A stretch of 64,000 nt of DNA from Acidobacteriota bacterium (GTDB lineage: Bacteria > Acidobacteriota > UBA6911 > RPQK01 > JADFOI01). The stretch covers positions 1,600,001 to 1,664,000 of the forward strand of contig OY760074.1 in NCBI GenBank assembly GCA_963663035.1, read 5' to 3'. The position numbers and the translations under genes are program-made. The stretch's first letter is position 1, and every line of letters begins with the position of its first letter. The notes below the pieces were generated by a model, which was not told the DNA's origin, searched no databases, and saw only the letters and a program-made list of their open reading frames with translations. Positions 12,783 through 23,859 of this stretch are shown piece after piece.

Positions 12783-12830
12783 GTATTTTGAGAGTAGCGC
12801 GCTTCGCTCCCAGAAAAAAGGGAAAAAAGA

Positions 12831-12922
12831 AGGAGGCAGGAGTCAGGAGACAGGAGTCAGAAGATCTTTTCAATCTGAGATACGCGCGAAGCGCACCTCC
12901 TACCTCCTGCCTCCTGCCTCCT
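12831..12922. repeat. Inverted arrays of CAGGAG[G/T/A] heptamers
   Basis: aggaggcaggagtcaggagacaggagtcagaag ... ctcctacctcctgcctcctgcctcct in the divergent intergenic region. Confidence 0.7.
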
Positions 12923-12967
12923 TCTTTCCCCATGTTATACTTCCACCGGCGCAGACGGAGGGAGACC

Positions 12968-13228
12968 ATGAGCGCGGTTCAAATAGATTTTTTTACAAGG
13001 CCCGGTTGCCATCTTTGTCACGAGGCCCTGGACGTTCTGAAAAGGCTCCAGAAAGACTTTGACTTCGAGATCCGAAGTGTCAACATCTCTGAATCGGCCG
13101 AGTTCGCTGCACTCTACCAAGACAGCATCCCCGTCGCCACCCTAAATGGGAGAGCCATCCTCAAACACCGAGCTGACGAAAAAATGCTGCGGCGAATCCT
13201 CAGCCGCCAGATGGTAGCCGCAGAATGA
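12968..13228 (+). CDS. Glutaredoxin-like protein (DUF836-type)
   Basis: FFTRPGCHLC CxxC, IPV cis-Pro; ATG 12968 after GGAG; stop overlaps the next start. Confidence 0.85.
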   Translation: MSAVQIDFFTRPGCHLCHEALDVLKRLQKDFDFEIRSVNISESAEFAALYQDSIPVATLNGRAILKHRADEKMLRRILSRQMVAAE

Positions 13229-13629
13229 AGTGGCTCAAGCACGCTTTTGCCACGGATCCGCCGGGACCGGCCAAACCGGACGAGACACAGCGCGTCCTCC
13301 TCGAGAAGCTGTGCCGGGAGGTGGTTCGTCGCCACCTGACCACGCCCGTGCTGTTGATGCTGGAAACGAGTCGGCCATTGAACTATGTTTCGGCTCAGCT
13401 CCTGCACTATCTCCAGCCGATCGTCTCGATTCTTGCCGACACGGCCAACTATCAGAAACTCACTGCATTTTTGGAACAACGCGGATCGATCGATTACGTC
13501 TATCAGCGACTGGAAGCCATCGAGACCGAATACCGTGGTCAAACAAAGCAAGGCGATGAGCCTGCGACCGAAGGCGACCCGCCAGCAGGCACCCCAAGTA
13601 CCGCAGGTACCACAAATACCCGGAAATGA
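13225..13629 (+). CDS. Hypothetical protein (operon member)
   Basis: ATGA overlaps at both ends; LLMLETSRPLNYVSAQ core. Confidence 0.75.
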   Translation: MKWLKHAFATDPPGPAKPDETQRVLLEKLCREVVRRHLTTPVLLMLETSRPLNYVSAQLLHYLQPIVSILADTANYQKLTAFLEQRGSIDYVYQRLEAIETEYRGQTKQGDEPATEGDPPAGTPSTAGTTNTRK

Positions 13630-15455
13630 AAGAGATCGACCCTGACAAGATTCGCGTGATCCTGGCCACCGACTGCGGCAGTACCACAACCAAGGCGATC
13701 CTCATCCAAAAGATCGACGGCGTTTACCGCCAGACCCACCGGGGCGAAGCTCCAACCACCGTTGAAGCGCCCTTCGCGGACGTCACCATGGGCGTGGTCA
13801 ATGCTGTCACTGAAACTCAGGAACTCGCCGACCGGCGGCTGGTCGACGAGGACGGCAGAATCATCCAACCGGCGGAGGAGGAAGGCTGCGACCTCTACAT
13901 TTCCACTTCGAGCGCGGGTGGCGGGTTGCAGATGATGGTCGCAGGCGTGATTCGCGAAATGACCGCAGAGAGTGCAAAGCGCGCCGCCCTGGGCGCGGGC
14001 GCGATCGTGATGGACGTCATAGCTTCCAATGACAAACGCCGGCCTCACGAGCAGATCCAGCGCATCCGTGAGCTGCGCCCGGACATGATCCTGATCTCGG
14101 GAGGGATCGACGGAGGCACGACCACCCACGTGGTCCAGATCGCCGAGCTGATTCCTCCAGCCAATCCGCGGCCCAGATTCGGCAGCGAGTACAGGCTTCC
14201 CATCATCTACGCCGGCAATAAAGATGCTGCAGCGCTCGTTGAGGAGATCATCAGCGCCGGCTTTGACCTGACCATTGTGGATAACCTGCGGCCGGTCTTG
14301 GAGCGCGAAAACCTGGGTCCGGCGCGTGATGCCATTCACGATCTGTTCCTGGAGCACGTCATGGCGCATGCACCCGGCTATGACAAGCTCATGCAAACAA
14401 CTGATGCGCCCATCATGCCGACACCCGGTGCCGTCGGCAATATCCTGCAAACCATCGCCAGCCAAAAAGGAATCAATGTCGTTGGCGTGGATATCGGTGG
14501 CGCGACCACCGACGTATTCAGCGTCTTTGACGGCACCTTCAATCGGACAGTCAGCGCAAACCTGGGCATGAGCTACTCCATCTCCAACGTGTGTGCGGAG
14601 GCCGGCATGCCCAGCATCTTGCGCTGGATTCACTTCGATATGGATGAGCGCGAGTTGCGCAACCGCGTCAAGAACAAAATGATCCGACCGACCACGATCC
14701 CGCAGACACTGGAGGCTCTTGTCTTCGAGCAGGCGGTGGCCCGCGAAGCATTGCGGCTGGCCTACCAACAGCACCAAGCCTTCGCCACTACTCTCAAGGG
14801 CGTGCAGCGGCAGCGTACTGTGGGCGACACCTTCACCCAGGAGAGTTCCGGCCAGACCATCGTCGACAACATGAAGCTCGACCTGCTGGTCGCGTCCGGT
14901 GGGGTACTTTCACACGCTCCCGACATGCGCCAGACGGCGATGATGCTGATTGACGCCTTTCAGCCGGAAGGATTTACCGAGCTGGCCAAAGACTCCATTT
15001 TCATGATGCCCCATCTGGGAGTGCTGGCAGCGGTGCACCCTCAGGCATCACTGGAGGTCTTTGAGCGCGACTGTCTGGTCAATCTGGGTACCACGGTCGC
15101 CGCAAAGGGTCTGGCCAAGCTCGGCCGGCCCTGCTTTCGATACTCGATCCGTTCAGCGGCGCTCAACGAATCTGGCCAGCTGAACTTCGGAGAAGTTCGT
15201 CTCTTTTCCCTGGGCCCGGACGAGACGGCCTCGGTGAGCATCCAACCCGAGCGGAGCTTCGACTGTGGTGGCGGAGCTGGTAAGGACATCGAACGCGAAG
15301 TACGCGGGGGAACGGTCGGGCTGATCCTGGATGCCCGCGGGCGGCCACTGGTCATTCCGGACAAGCCTGAGGAGGGACGAGAGTTGCTTGAAAAATGGGT
15401 CTCGGCCCTGGAACTATATCCTGAAATCCAGAGGGCTCCACTGCAGAAGGAATAG
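13626..15455 (+). CDS. GlmL/MutL-like (glutamate mutase L family) ASKHA ATPase
   Basis: Two phosphate loops ILATDCGSTTTK and VGVDIGGATTDV; SSAGGGL, GGIDGG, IMPTPGAV, GLILDARGRP. Confidence 0.85.
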   Translation: MKEIDPDKIRVILATDCGSTTTKAILIQKIDGVYRQTHRGEAPTTVEAPFADVTMGVVNAVTETQELADRRLVDEDGRIIQPAEEEGCDLYISTSSAGGGLQMMVAGVIREMTAESAKRAALGAGAIVMDVIASNDKRRPHEQIQRIRELRPDMILISGGIDGGTTTHVVQIAELIPPANPRPRFGSEYRLPIIYAGNKDAAALVEEIISAGFDLTIVDNLRPVLERENLGPARDAIHDLFLEHVMAHAPGYDKLMQTTDAPIMPTPGAVGNILQTIASQKGINVVGVDIGGATTDVFSVFDGTFNRTVSANLGMSYSISNVCAEAGMPSILRWIHFDMDERELRNRVKNKMIRPTTIPQTLEALVFEQAVAREALRLAYQQHQAFATTLKGVQRQRTVGDTFTQESSGQTIVDNMKLDLLVASGGVLSHAPDMRQTAMMLIDAFQPEGFTELAKDSIFMMPHLGVLAAVHPQASLEVFERDCLVNLGTTVAAKGLAKLGRPCFRYSIRSAALNESGQLNFGEVRLFSLGPDETASVSIQPERSFDCGGGAGKDIEREVRGGTVGLILDARGRPLVIPDKPEEGRELLEKWVSALELYPEIQRAPLQKE

Positions 15456-15500
15456 CGTTCGATGAATCTCAATTCGTCTGATTGGACTGGTTAAGGATTG

Positions 15501-16628
15501 ATGGCAAAAGCGTACACACCTGGACTCAAGGTTTCAGCTCATGGGCGGCATCGTGCCCGCCGGATTCTCCCCATCAAGGGAGAAGTTCGAGTGGAGGTTG
15601 GAGAACATCTCCTCCCACAGCAAGTGGTCGCCGAGACCTTCATGCCCGGCGAGGTCACACCGCTGAACATGGCCAACCTTCTTTCCCTACCGCCCGCTGA
15701 CGTTCCCGAGTGCATGCTCAAGAAGGAAGGCGACCGCATTTCAGTGGGTGACGCCTTGGCCCGCACCAAAGGCATCTTCGGTAGGTTCCGCAGTGAATAC
15801 CTCTCCAAAGTCGAGGGAACTATAGAGTCGATCTCCTCGGTGACCGGACAGGTCATTGTGCGGGGTGAACCGATGCCCCTGCAGGTCCATGCATACCTGG
15901 CCGGCAGCGTCGTCGAGGTTCTGCCCGGAGAGGGTTGCGTGATTGAAGCGAGCGCCTCTTTCATTCAGGGCATATTCGGGATCGGCGGGGAGACCTTCGG
16001 TCCGATCCGCCTGGCGGTAGCGAGCCACGATCAGGCTCTGACCGACGACCTGATCGGGCCGGACATGAAGGACGCGGTGGTCGTCGGCGGTGCGCGCTTG
16101 ACCGAGCAGGCCCTGGAGAAAGCTCGTACTGTCGGCGTCTCCGCCGTCGTCTCCGGTGGTATCGACGACCAGGACCTCAAAAAGTTCCTCGGTTACGACC
16201 TGGGCGTGGCCATTACCGGCTCGGAAGATGTTGGCCTCACCTTGATCGTCACCGAGGGCTTCGGAGATATTGCCATGGCCGAGCGTACCTTTAACCTTCT
16301 GGCGTCGCGCCAAGGCGCCGACGCGGCGGTCAACGGTACAACCCAGATTCGAGCGGGTGTCCTGAGGCCTGAGATCGTCATCCCCTGGACGGACGGGGAG
16401 AAGGCAGACGAGACTGTCTCGACGGAGTCGGCAGGATATCTGGAGATCGGCGTTCAGGTGCGAGTCATTCGCGATCCCTACTTCGGAAAAATCGGCTCGG
16501 TAAGCGCGTTGCCGCCTGAACCGCAAGTGCTGGAATCGGGCTCCAAGGCCAGGGTGCTCGAGGTTCAGTTCGATTCCGGTGAAGATGTTATAATCCCGCG
16601 AGCCAACGTTGAACTAATCGAAGGATGA
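15501..16628 (+). CDS. Conserved hypothetical protein with barrel-sandwich-hybrid-like repeats and a C-terminal KOW/SH3-like domain
   Basis: VRVEVGEHL and LKKEGDRISVGDALA repeats; TEGFG; VRVIRDPYFGKIG...VIIPRANVE. Confidence 0.8.
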   Translation: MAKAYTPGLKVSAHGRHRARRILPIKGEVRVEVGEHLLPQQVVAETFMPGEVTPLNMANLLSLPPADVPECMLKKEGDRISVGDALARTKGIFGRFRSEYLSKVEGTIESISSVTGQVIVRGEPMPLQVHAYLAGSVVEVLPGEGCVIEASASFIQGIFGIGGETFGPIRLAVASHDQALTDDLIGPDMKDAVVVGGARLTEQALEKARTVGVSAVVSGGIDDQDLKKFLGYDLGVAITGSEDVGLTLIVTEGFGDIAMAERTFNLLASRQGADAAVNGTTQIRAGVLRPEIVIPWTDGEKADETVSTESAGYLEIGVQVRVIRDPYFGKIGSVSALPPEPQVLESGSKARVLEVQFDSGEDVIIPRANVELIEG

Positions 16629-16632
16629 GTCC

Positions 16633-17811
16633 ATGAGAGGGCACTTCACCTTAGCTGTCGTGTGTGGGTTGGGGGTACTGGTGCTCCCGGCCGCGGGACA
16701 GACTCCGGCACCAGCGGCACCCACTGAGCTGACTGCGGCGGATCGGCCCTGGGACAACGGGACCCGCATCGATCTGAGTTGGTCCCTCTCGAGCGACGAC
16801 GCGGCGCTCCAGGGGTACATCATCCGCAGGAGGGCCGGGGAAGATCCCGAGTTCGCCCGTGTGGACCTGGTAGGACCTGGTACCAGCCAGTTCACTGTCA
16901 CAGATCTCAGTCCGGAGGAAACCTATCTCTTCCAGGTCGCCGCCATTGCCCAGGACAACACCGAGTCCTTACCTGCCCTCACCAACGCGCCCATTACCCC
17001 CTCGATGGAATGGTTTGACGGCACACGGGTGTGGTTTCTGCTCACGCTGGTGATCTTCTGCGGGGCGGTAGTGGTGTTCATCGGGAGGGCGCGAAAGGGT
17101 GCCACACTGAAGCTCCGCAAGATCGCGGGTCTGGAGGCAGTCGACGAAGCCGTGGGACGGGCCACCGAAATGGGCCGCTCCTGTCTCTTCATTCCCGGCA
17201 TCGCCGACATAAATGACATTCAGACCATCGCAGCCATGAACATCCTGGGGAGAGTGGCCAGGACTGCAACCGAGTACGATGCCAAGCTGGAGGTACCGAC
17301 CAGCAAGTCCCTGGTCATGACCATGGCTCGTGAAACCGTGCAGACGGCGTTTCTTTCAGCCGGCCGGCCCGACGCCTTCAATCCCGATGCGATTTACTAC
17401 GTGACCGATGAGCAGTTCGGTTACGTGGCCTACCTCCAGGGCATGATGGTTCGCGAAAAGCCGGCGGCTTGCTTCTACATGGGCTCTTTCTACGCCGAAT
17501 CGCTGATTCTCGCCGAGATGGGGAACGCCGTGGGCGCGATCCAGATTGCCGGGACCGCTCAGCCGGCCCAGCTGCCGTTTTTCGTGGCGGCCTGCGATTA
17601 CACGCTGATCGGCGAAGAGTTCTTTGCCGCCTCGGCCTATCTGTCCGGTGAGCCGGACCAACTGGGCAGCCTGAAAGGCCAGGACGTGGGCAAGCTCATT
17701 GTAGCGGCGGGCATCGTGGGCGGCGTCCTTGCCTCCACGCTGGCCGTAGTGACCGGTTCGTCCCTGATTCAGTCACTGGTGGATTTCTTCATGGAGACGA
17801 TGCTGAGCTAA
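16633..17811 (+). CDS. Fibronectin type III + DUF6754-like membrane protein
   Basis: Signal peptide, FN3 (APTELTA...LSW...YLFQVAA), TM, then IAGLEAVDEAVGRATEMGR and ACDYTLIGEEFFAASAYL. Confidence 0.8.
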   Translation: MRGHFTLAVVCGLGVLVLPAAGQTPAPAAPTELTAADRPWDNGTRIDLSWSLSSDDAALQGYIIRRRAGEDPEFARVDLVGPGTSQFTVTDLSPEETYLFQVAAIAQDNTESLPALTNAPITPSMEWFDGTRVWFLLTLVIFCGAVVVFIGRARKGATLKLRKIAGLEAVDEAVGRATEMGRSCLFIPGIADINDIQTIAAMNILGRVARTATEYDAKLEVPTSKSLVMTMARETVQTAFLSAGRPDAFNPDAIYYVTDEQFGYVAYLQGMMVREKPAACFYMGSFYAESLILAEMGNAVGAIQIAGTAQPAQLPFFVAACDYTLIGEEFFAASAYLSGEPDQLGSLKGQDVGKLIVAAGIVGGVLASTLAVVTGSSLIQSLVDFFMETMLS

Positions 17812-17815
17812 CTAA

Positions 17816-18514
17816 ATGAAGCGGTCTGTTCCACTCCTGATCACAGCCTTGGGCGGATTCGTCCTCATCGCCGCTTACTTTATCCCGTATACGCAGAGCT
17901 GGGGCGAGAGTGTCGCCGTCTGGTTCGATATTCTGGCGTCGATCGCGTTCATCCTGGGCGGCGGCAACCTGCTGAAGCTGCACCTGAAGAAGGTGTACGA
18001 TCAGGTTCCCGGCTGGGGCTATTCCCTGATCGTACTAGTTGCCTTTCTGTTAACACTCACGGTCGGCCTGGGCAAGATGGGCGTGCAGCCGTCGGCGCAG
18101 TTTACGGACTTCGCCTGGTCGGGCCATTACCGGGAAATCGGCAGTCCCTTCTGGTTTCTCTACCAGTACGGGTTCCAACCGCTGACCGCAACAATGTTCG
18201 CCCTGCTGGCCTTCTACATTGCATCGGCTGCCTTCAGGGCCTTTCGTGCCAAGAACCTGGAAGCCGTCCTGTTGCTGGGCACAGCCTTCATCATACTGCT
18301 GGGAAGGACCTTTGCAGGGGTTGCCCTGACAGGTTGGATCCCTCCCGACAGCGCTTTCAGCGGGCTGCGCGTGGAAAACCTGACCGTCTATATCATGAGC
18401 GTGTTCAACACCATAGGAAACCGGGCGATCATGATCGGAATCGCCCTGGGCATTGTCTCGGTCTCGCTGAAGGTACTGCTGGGCGTGGACCGTTCCTACT
18501 TGGGCAAGGAGTAG
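17816..18514 (+). CDS. Polytopic membrane protein (operon member)
   Basis: About 6 hydrophobic segments; PLTATMFALLAFYIASAAFRAFR. Confidence 0.8.
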   Translation: MKRSVPLLITALGGFVLIAAYFIPYTQSWGESVAVWFDILASIAFILGGGNLLKLHLKKVYDQVPGWGYSLIVLVAFLLTLTVGLGKMGVQPSAQFTDFAWSGHYREIGSPFWFLYQYGFQPLTATMFALLAFYIASAAFRAFRAKNLEAVLLLGTAFIILLGRTFAGVALTGWIPPDSAFSGLRVENLTVYIMSVFNTIGNRAIMIGIALGIVSVSLKVLLGVDRSYLGKE

Positions 18515-18518
18515 CAAG

Positions 18519-19484
18519 ATGGGCGACTTCCTCATACAGCAGTGGTGGCTACCGATCGTGATTGTTGGCTCCCTGCTGCCCCTCATCAAGCAGATAGCCG
18601 GCCAGGGCCTCGGCGCCACCCTCCAGTCACTGGATCGCCGCTGGATCTTTCTGCTCATGCTGTGGGCCGTTCTGGTGCCTATCTACTTCATTGGCCTCAC
18701 CGGCCTAACCTTCCCCGAAGTCCCGGGCGAACTGGCCCAGGCCACCTTCAACGAGATTGAGAGGCTCCAGGAAGGCGATCCCATCCTGCTGTCGTTTGAC
18801 TTCGACCCGGCCAGCGAAGGCGAGCTGGGTCCGATGGCGACCGCCTTTGTGAAGCACGCTGCCTCCAAAAAGCTCAAGATGTACTTCATGGCACTTTGGC
18901 CAGTCGGTCCACAAATGATCGACGATGCGATCAACGACGTCATCCGCTCCGACTACCCGGAAATGGTCTACGGTGAGGACTATGTCAACCTCGGCTTCAA
19001 GTCGGGCGGAGAAGGCGTCATCAAGGTCATCGTCACCAACCTGCGGGAGCTGTACACGACAGACAGTCGGGGCACGGCCGTTCAGAACATTCCGATGATG
19101 ACCGGTATCGAAAACATCCAGCAGATGGAGCTGATCATCAACGTCTCTGCAGGCTACCCCGGAACCAAAGAGTGGGTGCAGTACGCCTCGACGCCCTACC
19201 CGGATCGTATCCGGCTGGTGGCGGGGGCTACCGGGGTGCAGGCGCCGCTACTCTATCCCTACATTCCCAGCCAGCTGCCAGGGCTGCTGGGAGCCATCAA
19301 GGGTGCTGCCGAATACGAGAAGCTGGTGGTCGACAAGTACGGTGGCCCGAACCCCGATCCCAAATACCTGGAGGGCCTTCGCCGCATGGGTCCGCAGCTG
19401 GTCGCCCACCTGCTCATCATCATCCTGATCGTGGTGGCGAATGTCCTCTACTTCGTCGGCCTCAAGCAAGAGGCGCGCCCATGA
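18519..19484 (+). CDS. Membrane-anchored protein with a soluble alpha/beta domain (operon member)
   Basis: N- and C-terminal TMs; DFDPASEGEL, YGEDYVNLGF, GLLGAIKGAAEYE. Confidence 0.8.
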   Translation: MGDFLIQQWWLPIVIVGSLLPLIKQIAGQGLGATLQSLDRRWIFLLMLWAVLVPIYFIGLTGLTFPEVPGELAQATFNEIERLQEGDPILLSFDFDPASEGELGPMATAFVKHAASKKLKMYFMALWPVGPQMIDDAINDVIRSDYPEMVYGEDYVNLGFKSGGEGVIKVIVTNLRELYTTDSRGTAVQNIPMMTGIENIQQMELIINVSAGYPGTKEWVQYASTPYPDRIRLVAGATGVQAPLLYPYIPSQLPGLLGAIKGAAEYEKLVVDKYGGPNPDPKYLEGLRRMGPQLVAHLLIIILIVVANVLYFVGLKQEARP

Positions 19485-20401
19485 AGCGGGAAACAACGGT
19501 TTGGCTGATACTCATGCTGTTGGGCGCCGCCGGTCTCATCGGGCGGGCCGCCTTCACCTCCCCGGGCATGGGCCGGGAATACGTGCAGGCCGTGTCCATC
19601 GCTGACGGCCAGCGGACACAATACCAGCAGGCAACCTTTGCGCAGTACCAGGGAGCCCTGGCCGCCGATTCGAACCAGACTGAATTCCTCTTTAGCCTGC
19701 CTCGCACGATCGGACTGTGGATCGCAGCCTTCTTCACGCTGGCCATCTTCTCTTTCCTCTATAGAGACAATCCCTTTTACCGAGCGGCCGAGTCCATTGT
19801 GGTTGGCGTCTCGGCCGGTTACTGGATGGTGGTCGGCTTCTGGGACGTGCTGGTACCCAACCTGTTCGGCAAGATTTTACCCGAAGTGGTCCAGGCCACA
19901 GCCATGCCAGGCCTCAGCGGACCAGAGGCGGAGCGCAACCTCTCGTATGTCATCCCGCTGGTCCTGGGCATTATGCTGCTGTGGCGGCTTTCGCCCAAGG
20001 GTGCCTGGATCTCCCGCTGGCCGTTGGCTTTTATCATCGGGACCACCGCCGGGCTGAGAATGATCGCGTTTTTGCACGGCGACTTTCTCGCCCAGATTCG
20101 CAACTCCATCCTGCCCCTGGTCGTGATCAACCAGGGGGCTTTCGACTTCTCAGCGTCGCTGACCAACCTGATAATGTTGGTCGGCGTGCTCTGCTGTCTC
20201 ACCTACTTTTTCTTCTCCTTCGAGCACAAGGGTGTTGTGGGGGGCGCGGCCAAGGTGGGTATCTGGATCTTGATGATTACTTTCGGTGCCGCCTTCGGCT
20301 ACACGGTCATGGGACGTATTGCGCTGCTGGCCATCCGCCTTGAGTTTCTACTCGATGACTGGCTCTGGCTGATCGATCCGCTCGGGAGACGTCTGCTGTA
20401 A
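19481..20401 (+). CDS. Polytopic membrane protein (operon member)
   Basis: Start reassigned to ATG 19481 (ATGA overlap); SFLYRDNPFYRAAE, LMITFGAAFGYTVMGRI. Confidence 0.8.
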   Translation: MKRETTVWLILMLLGAAGLIGRAAFTSPGMGREYVQAVSIADGQRTQYQQATFAQYQGALAADSNQTEFLFSLPRTIGLWIAAFFTLAIFSFLYRDNPFYRAAESIVVGVSAGYWMVVGFWDVLVPNLFGKILPEVVQATAMPGLSGPEAERNLSYVIPLVLGIMLLWRLSPKGAWISRWPLAFIIGTTAGLRMIAFLHGDFLAQIRNSILPLVVINQGAFDFSASLTNLIMLVGVLCCLTYFFFSFEHKGVVGGAAKVGIWILMITFGAAFGYTVMGRIALLAIRLEFLLDDWLWLIDPLGRRLL

Positions 20402-20435
20402 GCAGAAGATGGGGGGCGGCGTCCCTCCACTTTTT

Positions 20436-20870
20436 CTAGCGAATACCCGTGATGTAGTTCTCAAGCTGAGAGATCACGAACTCCTGCTCAGAGATGACGG
20501 CCTTGACCACGTCCCCGATGGAGATCACGCCAACCAACTTCTCGTCTTCCAGGACAGGCAGATGCCGGATACGTCTATCCGTCATAAGGGCCATACACTC
20601 TTCAATGGTCTGGTCGGTGCGAACACAGGACACCCGGCGGCTCATGATTTCTCCAATGGTCGTGCCCCGGGAAGTTTTCCCCTTCAAAACCACCTTCCTG
20701 GCGTAATCCCTTTCTGAAAAAATACCCACCAGATCATCCCCGTCCAGCACGAGCAGGGCCCCGATGCGGTGCTCATCCATAAGCTGCAGGGCGTCATACA
20801 CCGAGGTATCGGGTCTGGCGGACCACAGATCGTGGCCTTTGGTTTGCAATAGCTGCCGGATGGTGTTCAT
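20436..20870 (-). CDS. CBS-domain pair protein
   Basis: IGALLV, GIFSERDY, IRHLPV, GVISIGDVVK. Confidence 0.92.
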   Translation of the reverse strand: MNTIRQLLQTKGHDLWSARPDTSVYDALQLMDEHRIGALLVLDGDDLVGIFSERDYARKVVLKGKTSRGTTIGEIMSRRVSCVRTDQTIEECMALMTDRRIRHLPVLEDEKLVGVISIGDVVKAVISEQEFVISQLENYITGIR

Positions 20871-20968
20871 CGCCTCACTCCTCCGTCAACGAGGTGAATT
20901 TTCCCCTATTATGCCTCACACTTGGCTCTGGAGAAAGGGATTTGGCCCGAAAAATGACATTTCCAAGC

Positions 20969-22372
20969 TCAGAGCCCTTCTTTCACAGCAGCCGTGAGAG
21001 CTATGGCCACCTGTTTGGCATCGCCAAAGAGCATGAGAGCATTGTCTGCAGCAAACAGAGGGTTGGCAATTCCGGCGAATCCCGGACTGAGGCTTCTCTT
21101 GATGACCACGACCGAACGGGCCTGGTCCACATCCAAAATCGGCATGCCAGCAATGGGAATGGAGGGATCTGACTCTCGGGCCAGGGGGTTGACCACGTCG
21201 TTGGCGCCGATGACCAGCACCACATCGGTCTGCCGGAAGGTGGGGTTGATTTCATCCATGTCCTTCAATTTCTCGTAGGGTATATTGGCCTCCGCCAGCA
21301 GGACATTCATGTGTCCCGGCATCCGTCCAGCAACGGGATGAACAGCAAATTCCACCTCAACTCCTTTGGATTCCAACAGCTGGGCCAGATCCTGCACCAC
21401 GAACTGGGCCTGGGCAACGGCCATTCCATAGCCGGGAACGACGATCACCCGCCGGGCATCCTGCAACAGCATCGCCACTTCCTCCGCGGAGGCCGATTTG
21501 ACTCGCCCACTGTAAATGTCTTCACTCTCCTCTGCGGTCGCTACGGCGGCCCCTACGCCGGCAAACATAACGTTCGCCAGGGAGCGGTTCATGGCCCGGC
21601 ACATCAGAGCGGTGAGTATGAAGCCCGCGGCGCCCACCAGGGAGCCAGCAATGATCAGCACGCTGTTGTTCAGCACCCACCCGTGACCGGCAGCTGCCAC
21701 TCCTGAATAAGAGTTGAGCAGGGCGATGACTACCGGCATGTCGGCCCCTCCAATGGGTATGACCAGCATAATCCCCAGAAGAGAGGCAACCCCGGCCAAG
21801 ACCCAGAAGGGCAGTGAGGATGTGGGATCCAAGACCAGCCACACACTCAAGCCCAGGCAGATCATTACCAGCACGATGTTGAGGACGTGTCGGCCTGCTA
21901 GAAGGACCGGTCTCTCGTTGACCAGTCCCTGGAGTTTGCCAAAGGCAACGGCGCTGCCGGTGAAAGAGACTCCGCCAATGAGGGCAGAGAGTGCGGCGGC
22001 CACCGTGAACTGGACGGAGATTTCTTCGACGAATCCTCCTCTGAGTGCCTCTTCCAGGGCGGCTCCCACCGCCAGGGCCGAGGCACCACCTCCAAAGCCG
22101 TTGAAAACGGCGACCACTTGGGGCATAGCGGTCATGGATGTTCGGTAGGCAAGGATCACCCCCACCAGAGCACCCACCACCAGTCCCGCCACAATGATCT
22201 CAAAGCTGACGATGCGCCTGTCCAGGAGTGTCACCACCACCGCCAGGAGCATGCCCGCTGATCCCAGAAGATTGCCCCGTACGGCCGTGCGGGGATGGGA
22301 CAGTCCTTTCAGCCCGAGGATAAAGAGGACGGCGGCAATCAGGTAAAAGAGGTCAATGAGTGCTTGTGACAA
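20969..22372 (-). CDS. pntB: NAD(P) transhydrogenase beta subunit
   Basis: IGGADMPVVI, VPGYGMAVAQAQ, HPVAGRMPGHMNVLLAEA, GANDVVNP. Confidence 0.96.
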   Translation of the reverse strand: MSQALIDLFYLIAAVLFILGLKGLSHPRTAVRGNLLGSAGMLLAVVVTLLDRRIVSFEIIVAGLVVGALVGVILAYRTSMTAMPQVVAVFNGFGGGASALAVGAALEEALRGGFVEEISVQFTVAAALSALIGGVSFTGSAVAFGKLQGLVNERPVLLAGRHVLNIVLVMICLGLSVWLVLDPTSSLPFWVLAGVASLLGIMLVIPIGGADMPVVIALLNSYSGVAAAGHGWVLNNSVLIIAGSLVGAAGFILTALMCRAMNRSLANVMFAGVGAAVATAEESEDIYSGRVKSASAEEVAMLLQDARRVIVVPGYGMAVAQAQFVVQDLAQLLESKGVEVEFAVHPVAGRMPGHMNVLLAEANIPYEKLKDMDEINPTFRQTDVVLVIGANDVVNPLARESDPSIPIAGMPILDVDQARSVVVIKRSLSPGFAGIANPLFAADNALMLFGDAKQVAIALTAAVKEGL

Positions 22373-22381
22373 TGTTTTTCC

Positions 22382-22663
22382 TTATTCCTTGCGACGAAAC
22401 ATTGCCAGCATGCGGTGAGTGATCAGGAAGCCTCCTACCACGTTGGCCGTCGCCATGGCCACGGCCAGGAAGCCTAGAATCGTGGTAAAAGTTGTCAATT
22501 GCAAGCCCGAGGTCACCAGGGTTCCCACCAGGGTAATGCCCGAGATCGCATTGGCTCCCGACATCAGGGGGGTGTGCAGGAGAGGTGGCACCTTGGTGAT
22601 CACCTCAAAGCCCACAAAAAGAGCCAACACAAAGATGGTCAAGGCCGCTACGAAAACTTCCAT
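22382..22663 (-). CDS. pntA: NAD(P) transhydrogenase alpha subunit part 2
   Basis: VPPLLHTPLMSGANAISG. Confidence 0.94.
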   Translation of the reverse strand: MEVFVAALTIFVLALFVGFEVITKVPPLLHTPLMSGANAISGITLVGTLVTSGLQLTTFTTILGFLAVAMATANVVGGFLITHRMLAMFRRKE

Positions 22664-23859
22664 CAGGATTTGCTCCTTCCATCGCCAATGGAAGCAGAGG
22701 CGGGTCCGGCCAGAAGTTCTCGCACCTGGGCATTGACCACCTCTCCCTGGTGAGTGAGAAGACTCTCGCCAATGATCTCGTCTTCCAAATTGAGCTGCAC
22801 TTGGCCGTCCTTCACCAGGTTCTGAAGGAAGGCTGTGACATTTCTGGAATACATCTGGCTGGCATGGTAAGGGACGGTGGAGGGCAAGTCGACAGGCCCC
22901 AGAATCGTGACGCCGTGACGCTCTACCGTTTCCCCGGGTTGAGTCAGCTCACAGTTCCCCCCCGAATCGGCAGCCAGATCCAGGATCACGGATCCCGGGC
23001 GCATTCCCTGGACCGCAGCCTCGGGAATGAGCATCGGTGCCTTCTTCCCCGATACCGCCGCCGTAGTGATAACGACATCGCTTTCGGCAATCACTCGCGT
23101 CATCAGCTCTCGCTGGCGCCGGTAAAAGTCCTCCTCCATGGTGCGGGCATATCCCCCAGATTCCTCTGCATCCGCGCTCTTCAACTCCAGTTCCAGGAAC
23201 TTGACCCCCAGGCTCTCCACTTGCTCCTTGACCGCAGGCCGCACATCGTAAGCCTGCACCACTGCCCCCAGGCGGTGAGCGGTGGCAATGGCTTGCAGCC
23301 CGGCTACGCCTGCTCCGATGACAAGCACTCGAGCCGGGGAGAGGGTTCCGGCGGCGGTCATCATCAAGGGATACATCTTGTGGAGCGCCCCGGCCGCCAC
23401 CAGAACGGCTTTGTAGCCAGCCACCGTGGCCATGGAGGTCAGCGCATCCATGGGCTGTGCTCGGCTGATCCGTGGAAGCAGCTCCAGCGCAAAGGCGGTG
23501 ATTCCCCTTTCGGCCAGCTCTCGCGCGACTTCCGGCGCCCCCAAGGGGTTCAGGAGGCCCAGCACGATCTGACCCCGGCGCATCAAGTCCAGATCTTCCT
23601 GGCCCACACCAGGGTTGGCATCCAGAGGATGCACTTGCAAGAGCACATCGGCCGAGGCAAACACTTCCTTGCGATCCGGTGCCAGGCGCGCTCCCTGATC
23701 CTGGTAGTCGGCGTCGGGAAAGCCGGCCCTTTGACCCGCTCCGCTTTGCACCAGAACCTCCAGGCCGGCTTCGGCCAACTTCGGCACCTCCCCAGGCACC
23801 AGGGCTACCCGCCGCTCCTCAGGATAGGTCTCAACAGCTACTCCGACGATCATCTCCAC
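22663..23859 (-). CDS. pntA: NAD(P) transhydrogenase alpha subunit part 1
   Basis: ERRVALVP, PRISRAQ, GAGVAGL, DLAADSGGNCE. Confidence 0.95.
   Translation of the reverse strand: MEMIVGVAVETYPEERRVALVPGEVPKLAEAGLEVLVQSGAGQRAGFPDADYQDQGARLAPDRKEVFASADVLLQVHPLDANPGVGQEDLDLMRRGQIVLGLLNPLGAPEVARELAERGITAFALELLPRISRAQPMDALTSMATVAGYKAVLVAAGALHKMYPLMMTAAGTLSPARVLVIGAGVAGLQAIATAHRLGAVVQAYDVRPAVKEQVESLGVKFLELELKSADAEESGGYARTMEEDFYRRQRELMTRVIAESDVVITTAAVSGKKAPMLIPEAAVQGMRPGSVILDLAADSGGNCELTQPGETVERHGVTILGPVDLPSTVPYHASQMYSRNVTAFLQNLVKDGQVQLNLEDEIIGESLLTHQGEVVNAQVRELLAGPASASIGDGRSKS

Follow-up and report, generated by a model that had tools for sequence, protein, structure and literature searches.

We analyzed a 64,000-nucleotide stretch of DNA (hereafter, the window) from an Acidobacteriota bacterium (GenBank assembly GCA_963663035.1, contig OY760074.1, positions 1,600,001 to 1,664,000 of the forward strand), in which eight adjacent genes combine an ATPase of the MutL family with a set of membrane proteins. 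An original prediction, made from the letters of the window, had read this locus as an eight-gene operon in which a GlmL-like ATPase and its soluble partner power or gate a membrane complex. Having compared the locus with its relatives, we consider it moderately probable that it is one copy of an ATP-coupled, two-module machine acting at the envelope or membrane, of a kind that is widespread and undescribed. Here, the eight open reading frames (ORFs) of window region 12968-20401 are called g1-g8, and an extra gene that lies upstream in relatives is called g0. Module 1 would be a soluble pair, the ATPase g3 and its three-domain partner g4, and module 2 would be an inner-membrane complex of g5-g8 and g2, to which the g0 protein, with a PH-like domain and two transmembrane (TM) segments, would belong outside Acidobacteriota. 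The locus holds the following features.

12783..12967, no strand: divergent intergenic region, presumed promoter/leader, between an ABC ATPase gene (- strand) and g1
12968..13228, + strand: g1, 86-amino-acid (aa) glutaredoxin-like protein with a CHLC motif (PF05768, E 5e-18)
13225..13629, + strand: g2, 134-aa soluble protein without a Pfam or NCBIfam match
13626..15455, + strand: g3, 609-aa ATPase by homology, with the ASKHA (actin/Hsp70/sugar-kinase) fold, MutL family (PF13941, E 6e-128)
15498/15501..16628, + strand: g4, 375/376-aa three-domain partner protein (AlphaFold2 (AF2) model; weak Pfam matches in relatives)
16633..17811, + strand: g5, 392-aa membrane protein with fibronectin type III (FN3) and DUF6754 domains (fn3, E 2.6e-07; PF20539, E 2.3e-122)
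17816..18514, + strand: g6, 232-aa polytopic membrane protein with about six TM segments (hydropathy; without a family)
18519..19484, + strand: g7, 321-aa protein whose N- and C-terminal TM segments enclose a domain of about 230 aa (hydropathy; without a family)
19481..20401, + strand: g8, 306-aa polytopic membrane protein with about eight TM segments (hydropathy; without a family)
20410-20429 (feature end also given as 20439), + strand: terminator-like GC-rich hairpin and then a T-run, 9 nt past the g8 stop codon

All eight ORFs lie on the plus strand and are tightly packed. Reading the ORF coordinates and junctions directly, we found ATGA overlaps at g1/g2, g2/g3 and g7/g8, 4-nt gaps at g4/g5, g5/g6 and g6/g7, and a single longer spacer of 42-45 nt between g3 and g4, which is the arrangement that the original prediction had given. 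Its protein calls were also borne out: a CxxC glutaredoxin (g1), a 609-aa protein with the two phosphate loops DCGSTTTK and DIGGATTD (g3), an FN3 plus DUF6754 protein (g5) and three further membrane proteins, for which hydropathy agrees (g6, g7 and g8). At E<=0.01, g2, g4, g6, g7 and g8 had no Pfam or NCBIfam match. An imperfect inverted repeat, GGAGGCAGGAG ... CTCCTGCCTCC, lies in the intergenic region before g1 and could be a candidate regulatory hairpin or operator; a promoter scan returned no sigma-70 consensus site in this region (12783-12967). The hairpin and T-run after g8 probably mark the end of the operon.

Conservation and descent of the cassette

We investigated relatives of the locus by searching one genome per species with g5 and then searching the resulting 41 loci by tblastn with the eight window proteins. 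The loci belong to Acidobacteriota, Planctomycetota, Marinimicrobia/Fidelibacterota and Gemmatimonadota, with some metagenome-assembled genomes (MAGs) in addition. The order and strand of g2-g8 are kept in 31 of the 41 loci, in four phyla, and the other 10 are cut by contig ends; the arrangement thus recurs in every related locus with room for it, which far exceeds chance, and the claim that the membrane genes are conserved next to the GlmL homolog holds. The variants comprise an insertion between g5 and g6 (L025, L032 and L040) and a 1.2-kb gap between g3 and g4 (L016). Because g1 was found in none of the 41 loci, this comparison identifies the glutaredoxin-like gene as a local, lineage-specific addition outside the conserved cassette. 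The predicted operon is therefore present with all of its eight genes, but the conserved unit consists of seven (g2-g8).

Identity to the window proteins across phyla was 73-84% for g3, 64-85% for g6 and 56-73% for g4 (two low outliers being set aside, L007 in the case of g3 and g4 and L035 in that of g6), placing g3 among the slowest-evolving proteins that we have met in unstudied systems. Mean column identity across phyla was 82% for g3, 79% for g6, 72% for g4, 68% for g7, and 57% each for g5 and g8. A maximum-likelihood tree of g6 and g7 was built from 36 rows, after omission of L007, L025, L035 and L040 (truncated or split genes) and of L031, which is without g7. The window fell within an Acidobacteriota clade (support 100/100), and the tree grouped largely by phylum, with 7 phylum-label changes against a minimum of 5. 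This grouping suggests that the high identity reflects constraint or slow evolution, not recent spread, and that the descent of the cassette is mostly vertical with few transfers. Separately, L038, on a contig labeled Betaproteobacteria, carries a cassette nearly identical to that of L039, an Acidobacteria MAG obtained in the same series of groundwater studies (branch lengths 0.0019 and 0); L038 is probably mis-binned.

Among the sampled genomes, DUF6754 was detected in 8 of 301 from the window's phylum, 65 of 251 Planctomycetota and 92 of 151 Fidelibacterota. The cassette is kept in Fidelibacterota assemblies of just 0.8-1.1 Mb, and some Planctomycetota genomes carry two or three copies of DUF6754. 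In eight Planctomycetota genomes (G407, G468, G320, G356, G397, G383, G518 and G502), paired DUF6754 genes stand 3-7 kb apart on one contig, which fits tandem copies of the membrane module. In another (G408:C20:254535-255250), the DUF6754 gene is in pieces, with two in-frame TGA codons, and is probably a decaying copy.

The system is abundant. Among 1.84 billion cluster representatives, the g4 family counted 3048 representatives (50% identity) at E<=1e-3 and 897 at E<=1e-30. The DUF6754 family counted at least 8000 clusters (90% identity) at E<=1e-10, which are unnamed or labeled just 'fibronectin type III domain-containing'. A literature search, which extended to sources other than subscription journals, found no description of the cassette system and no mention of DUF6754, PF20539 or PF13941.

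The membrane proteins and the partner of the ATPase

According to hydropathy, charge and Pfam, g5 runs from a signal or anchor segment through the FN3 domain, a TM segment and the very conserved DUF6754 domain (profile positions 2-253 of 257) to a last TM segment at the C terminus. The basic stretch GRARKGATLKLRK comes after the second membrane segment and, by the positive-inside rule, makes a cytoplasmic DUF6754 domain probable; the FN3 domain is probably exported. In the AF2 model, FN3 was confident and the DUF6754 part unreliable, with a predicted local distance difference test score (pLDDT) below 50. Cys280 and Cys321 are invariant in DUF6754. The length of g5 varies widely: many Fidelibacterota open frames have 290-306 aa, with no room for an FN3 domain, and long Planctomycetota forms (L044-L048; G383, G322, G389 and G364) reach 908-1312 aa, with exported N-terminal extensions of 650-1000 aa that had no match in Pfam or the Protein Data Bank. 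Read directly, the extension in L047 is long, has many K, E and A residues and looks helical; it might bridge an enlarged periplasm.

The other membrane proteins are conserved without belonging to a named family. In alignments, g6 has a near-invariant loop, FRAFRAKNxEA, between its fourth and fifth TM segments, and g8 has the invariant motif FFFSFEHKG plus C-terminal motifs. In g7, a conserved, alpha/beta-looking domain of about 230 aa is flanked by one or two membrane segments on its N-terminal side and a single one on its C-terminal side; the domain is probably periplasmic by the positive-inside rule, although the flanking basic residues are ambiguous. When 20 relatives each of g6, g7 and g8 were compared with Pfam at E<=5, no family recurred credibly, and we set aside weak matches of g6 relatives to DUF7521 (7 of 20) and Acyl_transf_3 (5 of 20), which looked like membrane-composition noise. 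The g7 profile found nothing credible in the Protein Data Bank, and the ESM Atlas returned for g7 and g8 just unnamed clusters of the same kind. An internal duplication of the membrane module was also considered and rejected, homology being undetected by hhalign (g5 against g7, probability 7%; g6 against g8, 0.2%).

A disulfide in g7 was evaluated as a topology marker. Among 20 aligned homologs, 13 have both Cys114 and Cys237, 4 have neither and 3 have one; this distribution tracks phylogeny and is not strong enough to settle the topology. Both cysteines are missing from g7 of the window and of three of the four other aligned Acidobacteriota, the fourth (L041) retaining Cys237. Among the compared loci, the operon of the window alone gained a glutaredoxin-like gene, and its g7 is without Cys114 and Cys237.

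Two small proteins accompany this set. An alignment of 19 g2 sequences shows a HAFA motif conserved at the N-terminal end, then a core of about 100 aa and a tail that varies. When 387 flanking ORFs were clustered, g0 was the sole family common across phyla: it encodes about 145 aa directly upstream of g2, with two membrane segments and a PH-like domain (a weak bPH_6 match in L010). By tblastn, g0 was found in 20 of the 41 loci and in 0 of the 9 Acidobacteriota-type loci, most of the other phyla having it; in the window's genome the best match had E 0.43, which we treated as not found.

The AF2 model of g4 (mean pLDDT 82) has three domains: a barrel-sandwich hybrid (residues ~20-150), a swiveling beta/beta/alpha-like domain (~153-301) and a KOW/SH3-like domain (~314-376). 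Fold matches of the first were NqrA (4u9o, Z 7.0 over 66 residues) and a lipoyl domain (3crk, Z 6.5), and those of the third were Spt5 KOW domains (Z 8-8.8). The middle domain matched Enzyme I (2wqd, Z 8.3, 109 residues), rifampin phosphotransferase (5hv1/5fbu, Z 7.4-7.7, ~105 residues), AF_0055 (2hi6, Z 7.8, 110/132 residues), RraA (Z 7.1-7.5) and the aconitase X (AcnX) small subunit. Such values (7-8.8) are middling, Z below 8 being common, and indicate fold, not function. Weak Pfam matches in 63 relatives of g4 (RnfC_N in 41, Biotin_lipoyl in 38, NQRA_N in 20 and KOW in 12) agree with the model, and together they back the earlier barrel-sandwich/KOW-like call; a Protein Data Bank search with g4 profiles matched just barrel and KOW fragments.

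Residue conservation in g4 was assessed over 63 diverse sequences at 33-59% identity. The invariant residues lie mainly in the middle domain (Q157, G161, G168, G254, G256, R285, G287, R290 and P291) and, with the near-invariant E165, E243, T252, E253, T282 and Q283, characterize glycine-rich loops with Arg, Glu and Gln (QGIFGxGGE, TEGFG and TQIRAGxxRPE). The lysine at the tip of the barrel hairpin is not conserved, which makes a role as a biotin or lipoyl carrier unlikely.

These features bear on an alternative that we regard as unlikely, in which the cassette encodes a membrane-bound ATP-dependent enzyme or phosphotransfer system: g3 would be of kinase type, and the swivel of g4 would carry a group, phosphoryl or another, over to a lipid-soluble substrate bound by the membrane subunits. 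Such shuttling by a swivel domain is how Enzyme I, PPDK and rifampin phosphotransferase operate, and the resemblance of the g4 middle domain to the first and third of these, its conserved loops, and the lipid-synthesis genes that neighbor the cassette in two lineages all speak for such an enzyme. However, no histidine occurs among the invariant or >=90% columns of the 63 g4 sequences, so the residue that defines a phospho-carrier is missing and a phosphohistidine relay is unlikely; a Pfam scan, including the weak matches in relatives, likewise found no PF00391. The scores are middling, and the fold has many functions, RraA and the aconitase X small subunit being examples. Furthermore, the nearest relatives of g3 by Pfam and NCBIfam are accessory proteins of chaperone or reactivase type, not kinases, from which ATP-driven conformational coupling is expected rather than small-molecule phosphorylation. 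The middle domain of g4 would more plausibly be a mobile, protein-contacting or phosphate-sensing element than a phosphohistidine relay.

Links between the modules and the context of the ATPase

The soluble pair is tightly joined and closely associated with the membrane genes. Both g3 and g4 are present in 34 loci, and in 7 of these they make up a single ORF of 987-1011 aa; that of L019 translates without a stop, and the g4-family representatives include fused forms of 995 and 1003 aa. A g4 profile (63 sequences) and DUF6754 identified the same 8 of 301 genomes in the window's phylum, at adjacent coordinates. Among the 151 Fidelibacterota genomes, g4 was detected in 97 and DUF6754 in 92; comparing the lists by hand, we found both in 91, g4 only in 6, DUF6754 only in 1 and neither in 53. 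Five of the seven discordant matches lie at contig ends.

The halves can also be apart. They stand on different contigs in several Fidelibacterota, and in one genome of this phylum (G572) both are present about 1 Mb apart on a single 2.3-Mb contig, with cdsA-g3-g4 at one site and g0-g2-g5-g6-g7-g8 at the other. This split assigns g2 and g0 to the membrane module and indicates that the soluble g3-g4 pair is a second module, separable from it. It also favors, together with the 7 of 151 Fidelibacterota genomes with just one half, the view that two independent systems are merely co-operonic in many lineages and that g3-g4 serve another client. We nevertheless hold that view to be quite improbable, as the halves occur in identical genomes of the window's phylum, are both present or both absent in nearly all Fidelibacterota, with most discordant cases at contig ends, and the g3-g4 pair sits inside the membrane set, between g2 and g5, in four phyla. 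A complex prediction for g5 residues 120-392 and g6 with g4 as partner (g3 was outside it) was uninformative, scoring 0.04 against a mark of 0.32. As for the proposal that the ATPase and its partner work for a membrane complex, the genomic tie is supported by gene order, fusion and co-occurrence, and the coupling itself is what we infer from that tie.

The ATPase itself is well defined as a family member. It aligns with the whole PF13941 profile (positions 1-450 of 450, 427.9 bits) and carries a C-terminal extension of about 125 aa. The phosphate-1, phosphate-2 and adenosine motifs of the ASKHA fold are invariant over four phyla, with the phosphate loops DCGSTTTK and DIGGATTD among them, and SGGVLSHAP is invariant too. 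Searches of the Protein Data Bank with g3, as a single sequence and as a profile, returned nothing credible. Databases propagate the label 'glutamate mutase L' for the cassette ATPase, which is misleading: g3 scores under the NCBIfam cut-offs for GlmL (NF040745, 229.2 vs 475 bits), Or-4 (NF040744, 210.4 vs 600) and glmL_fam (TIGR01319, 167.7 vs 204.05 bits). It is the sole PF13941 gene of the window's genome, a single 3.59-Mb contig that is 96.6% complete, and glmE (PF06368) had no match in this genome (G000) or in two other cassette genomes (G088 and G023).

Within the window's phylum, MutL was above the cut-off in 11 of 301 genomes. Eight are the cassette carriers; the other three (G167, G172 and G287) are without g4 and DUF6754 and have glmE 160-250 bp downstream of one MutL gene each. 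The MutL genes of this phylum fall in two clean classes, cassette and glmE-adjacent. Because of the scores under the cut-offs, the lack of glmE and the separate glmE-adjacent class, we conclude from sequence comparison that the g3 ATPase is not a glutamate-mutase helper, despite its database label. The original prediction had recognized no mutase in the window, and this extends to the whole genome as far as glmE is concerned; the neighborhood survey that it had suggested likewise gave DUF6754 in 8 of 8 cassette genomes of the phylum and no glmE in the three cassette genomes searched for it. One genome (G172:C1:2489785-2491080) contains a second MutL-family gene (487 bits, 547-aa open frame) without an adjoining glmE, g4 or DUF6754, which may be a third context for the ATPase family.

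That g3 might instead be a reactivase or chaperone of a B12-dependent or other cofactor enzyme, encoded elsewhere or holding its cofactor in the membrane complex, is an explanation to which we give very little weight. An ASKHA ATPase together with a swivel domain, the set that g3 and g4 have between them, is also found in DdrA/PduG and EutA; in addition to this and to the MutL family membership of g3, the window's genome has 13 B12-binding-domain matches and two acyl-CoA-mutase (MM_CoA_mutase) genes, and the invariant cysteines of DUF6754 can be counted on the same side. The scores of g3 under all three cut-offs and the lack of glmE in cassette genomes, when canonical MutL genes of the same phylum adjoin it, stand against this, as does the distance of more than 1 Mb between the acyl-CoA-mutase genes and the cassette. 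B12-binding domains occurred in 5 of 5 other cassette genomes examined but also in 12 of 14 control genomes without the cassette, so their presence argues neither way, and a B12 mutase elsewhere in the genome, which the original prediction had proposed as a test, does not discriminate. DdrA was not among the best 50 matches listed in either g4 fold search, which does not exclude a likeness.

Least probable of all is that g3, like FtsA, PilM or MreB, is an actin-like protein tethered to the membrane that would organize an envelope structure as a scaffold or polymer and not drive transport. Short peptides of membrane partners bind PilM and FtsA, to which the short, strongly conserved N-terminal motif of g2 can be likened, and g3 has the ASKHA fold. 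Against this, g3 matched no polymerizing family, and an obligate 1:1 fusion of g3 and g4 fits an enzyme pair better. The MutL/GlmL group (glutamate mutase) appears in a list of non-polymerizing actin-superfamily enzymes (PMC5597319).

Proposed mechanism and comparison with known systems

In the favored reading of a two-module machine, g3 would bind and hydrolyze ATP like its chaperone-type relatives, and its conformational change would be relayed via g4, with the swivel-like domain as the moving part. The relay would end at the cytoplasmic face of the membrane module, made up of the near-invariant DUF6754 domain of g5 and conserved loops in g6 and g8, where g2 might serve as an adaptor. Work would then be done by this module in the periplasm, the presumed site of the FN3 domain (g5) and of the g7 domain. 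That the modules form a complex and are coupled through ATP is inferred, as are topology and cargo, and the statements on them should be read as conditional. We rank the handling of an envelope or membrane component (lipid or polymer) slightly above solute transport.

The genes around the cassette give some functional clues. In Planctomycetota-type loci, plsX-fabH-fabD lie ~0.3-2.5 kb downstream (plsX in 16 loci), and kynurenine-pathway and NAD genes lie upstream. Marinimicrobia-type loci have cdsA upstream in five cases, with a YegS-type lipid kinase in three of those. In G572, cdsA directly precedes the detached g3-g4, and the site continues with genes for a transglutaminase-like protein, a PpiC-type rotamase, an S41 protease and ExbB-ExbD-ExbD-TonB.

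From these neighbors we derive a more specific proposal, which we offer as a tentative and rather doubtful one: a new class of primary, ATP-driven envelope machine with an actin/Hsp70-fold motor in place of a P-loop ATPase would move or insert a membrane lipid or other building block outward from the inner membrane. The cdsA and plsX-fab neighbors in two phyla, the long ectodomains of Planctomycetota and the retention of the cassette in Marinimicrobia assemblies of about 1 Mb fit it. If the lipid or envelope link is true, it bears on the movement of envelope building blocks in diderm bacteria outside Proteobacteria.

Several points weigh against the two-module machine or its envelope role. The lipid and envelope neighbors are confined to two lineages and are a lead, not a rule: in the window, an ABC transporter gene lies upstream and CBS-domain and pntAB genes lie downstream, other Acidobacteriota loci have peptidases upstream and no lipid or envelope neighbors, and besides g0 no flanking gene family is common across phyla. 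The cassette is patchy in the window's phylum (8 of 301), hence dispensable for most relatives. The co-occurrence counts cover related genomes, so that their independence is overstated, and the physical join of the two modules is deduced from genomic association. Since g6-g8 were compared through sequence profiles, they may still contain a known transporter fold. To our knowledge, the biochemical role of GlmL itself was never established, so the homology of g3 gives just 'ASKHA ATPase'.

As for the downstream neighbors in the window, a convergent stretch on the minus strand (20436-23859) directly follows the cassette and, by eye from translations, holds a CBS-domain-like ORF (144 aa) and three parts of a proton-translocating NAD(P) transhydrogenase (467, 93 and 398 aa).

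The well-studied ATP-driven membrane machines known to us all use P-loop (ABC, AAA+, F/V-type) or P-type ATPases. If the favored reading is true, a membrane complex driven by an actin/Hsp70-fold ATPase would represent a new energy-coupling principle, in lineages such as Fidelibacterota and Planctomycetota that matter in ocean and soil carbon cycling.

Among known proteins, GlmL/MutL, which accompanies the coenzyme-B12 glutamate (methylaspartate) mutase as an accessory protein, and the GlmL-related Or-4 of ornithine degradation (PF13941; NF040745, NF040744 and TIGR01319) share with g3 the Pfam family, the ASKHA fold and the phosphate-1 and -2 motifs. They differ in that g3 stays under all three NCBIfam cut-offs, has its 125-aa C-terminal extension and has an obligate, sometimes fused partner; it is never found beside glmE and always with DUF6754 membrane genes, whereas canonical copies in the same phylum adjoin glmE. 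In DdrAB, PduGH and EutA, an ASKHA ATPase and a swiveling domain perform ATP-driven conformational work on a partner protein and do not phosphorylate a small molecule. Here, by contrast, the swivel-like domain is on the separate g4, together with barrel-sandwich and KOW-like domains, and the putative partners are membrane proteins; no beta subunit or B12 enzyme was seen near the cassette, although no dedicated dehydratase search was made, and solved reactivase structures gave no sequence match of g3 or g4 and were not among the fold matches listed.

The middle domain of g4 (~153-301) gives middling fold matches (Z 7.4-8.3) to swiveling phosphohistidine domains of the type known from phosphotransferase-system Enzyme I, PPDK and rifampin phosphotransferase, and a mobile-domain role is plausible. 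Unlike in these phosphoenolpyruvate-utilizing enzymes, g4 is without a conserved His or PF00391, and the ATP-using partner is of ASKHA rather than ATP-grasp type. The N-terminal domain of g4 resembles the barrel-sandwich hybrid of RnfC and NqrA, which likewise stands on the soluble subunit of a (here presumed) membrane complex, but the eight proteins are without the rest of RnfC/NqrA, a flavin or Fe-S motif, or other Rnf or Na+-NQR subunit families. The predicted lack of resemblance to ABC, TRAP, ECF, Rnf and Nqr systems therefore holds by Pfam and NCBIfam, with the exception of the weak RnfC_N and NQRA_N barrel matches in g4 relatives. The analogy with ABC transporters is purely functional: a cytoplasmic ATPase is encoded with several membrane subunits, and the FRAFRAKNxEA loop of g6 could act like an ABC coupling helix. 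In contrast to ABC, ECF and TRAP systems, the eight proteins gave no match at E<=0.01 to a P-loop ABC domain or to a membrane or binding-protein family of these systems, none was consistent among the 20 relatives each of g6, g7 and g8 at E<=5, and the fold of the putative motor is that of actin and Hsp70.

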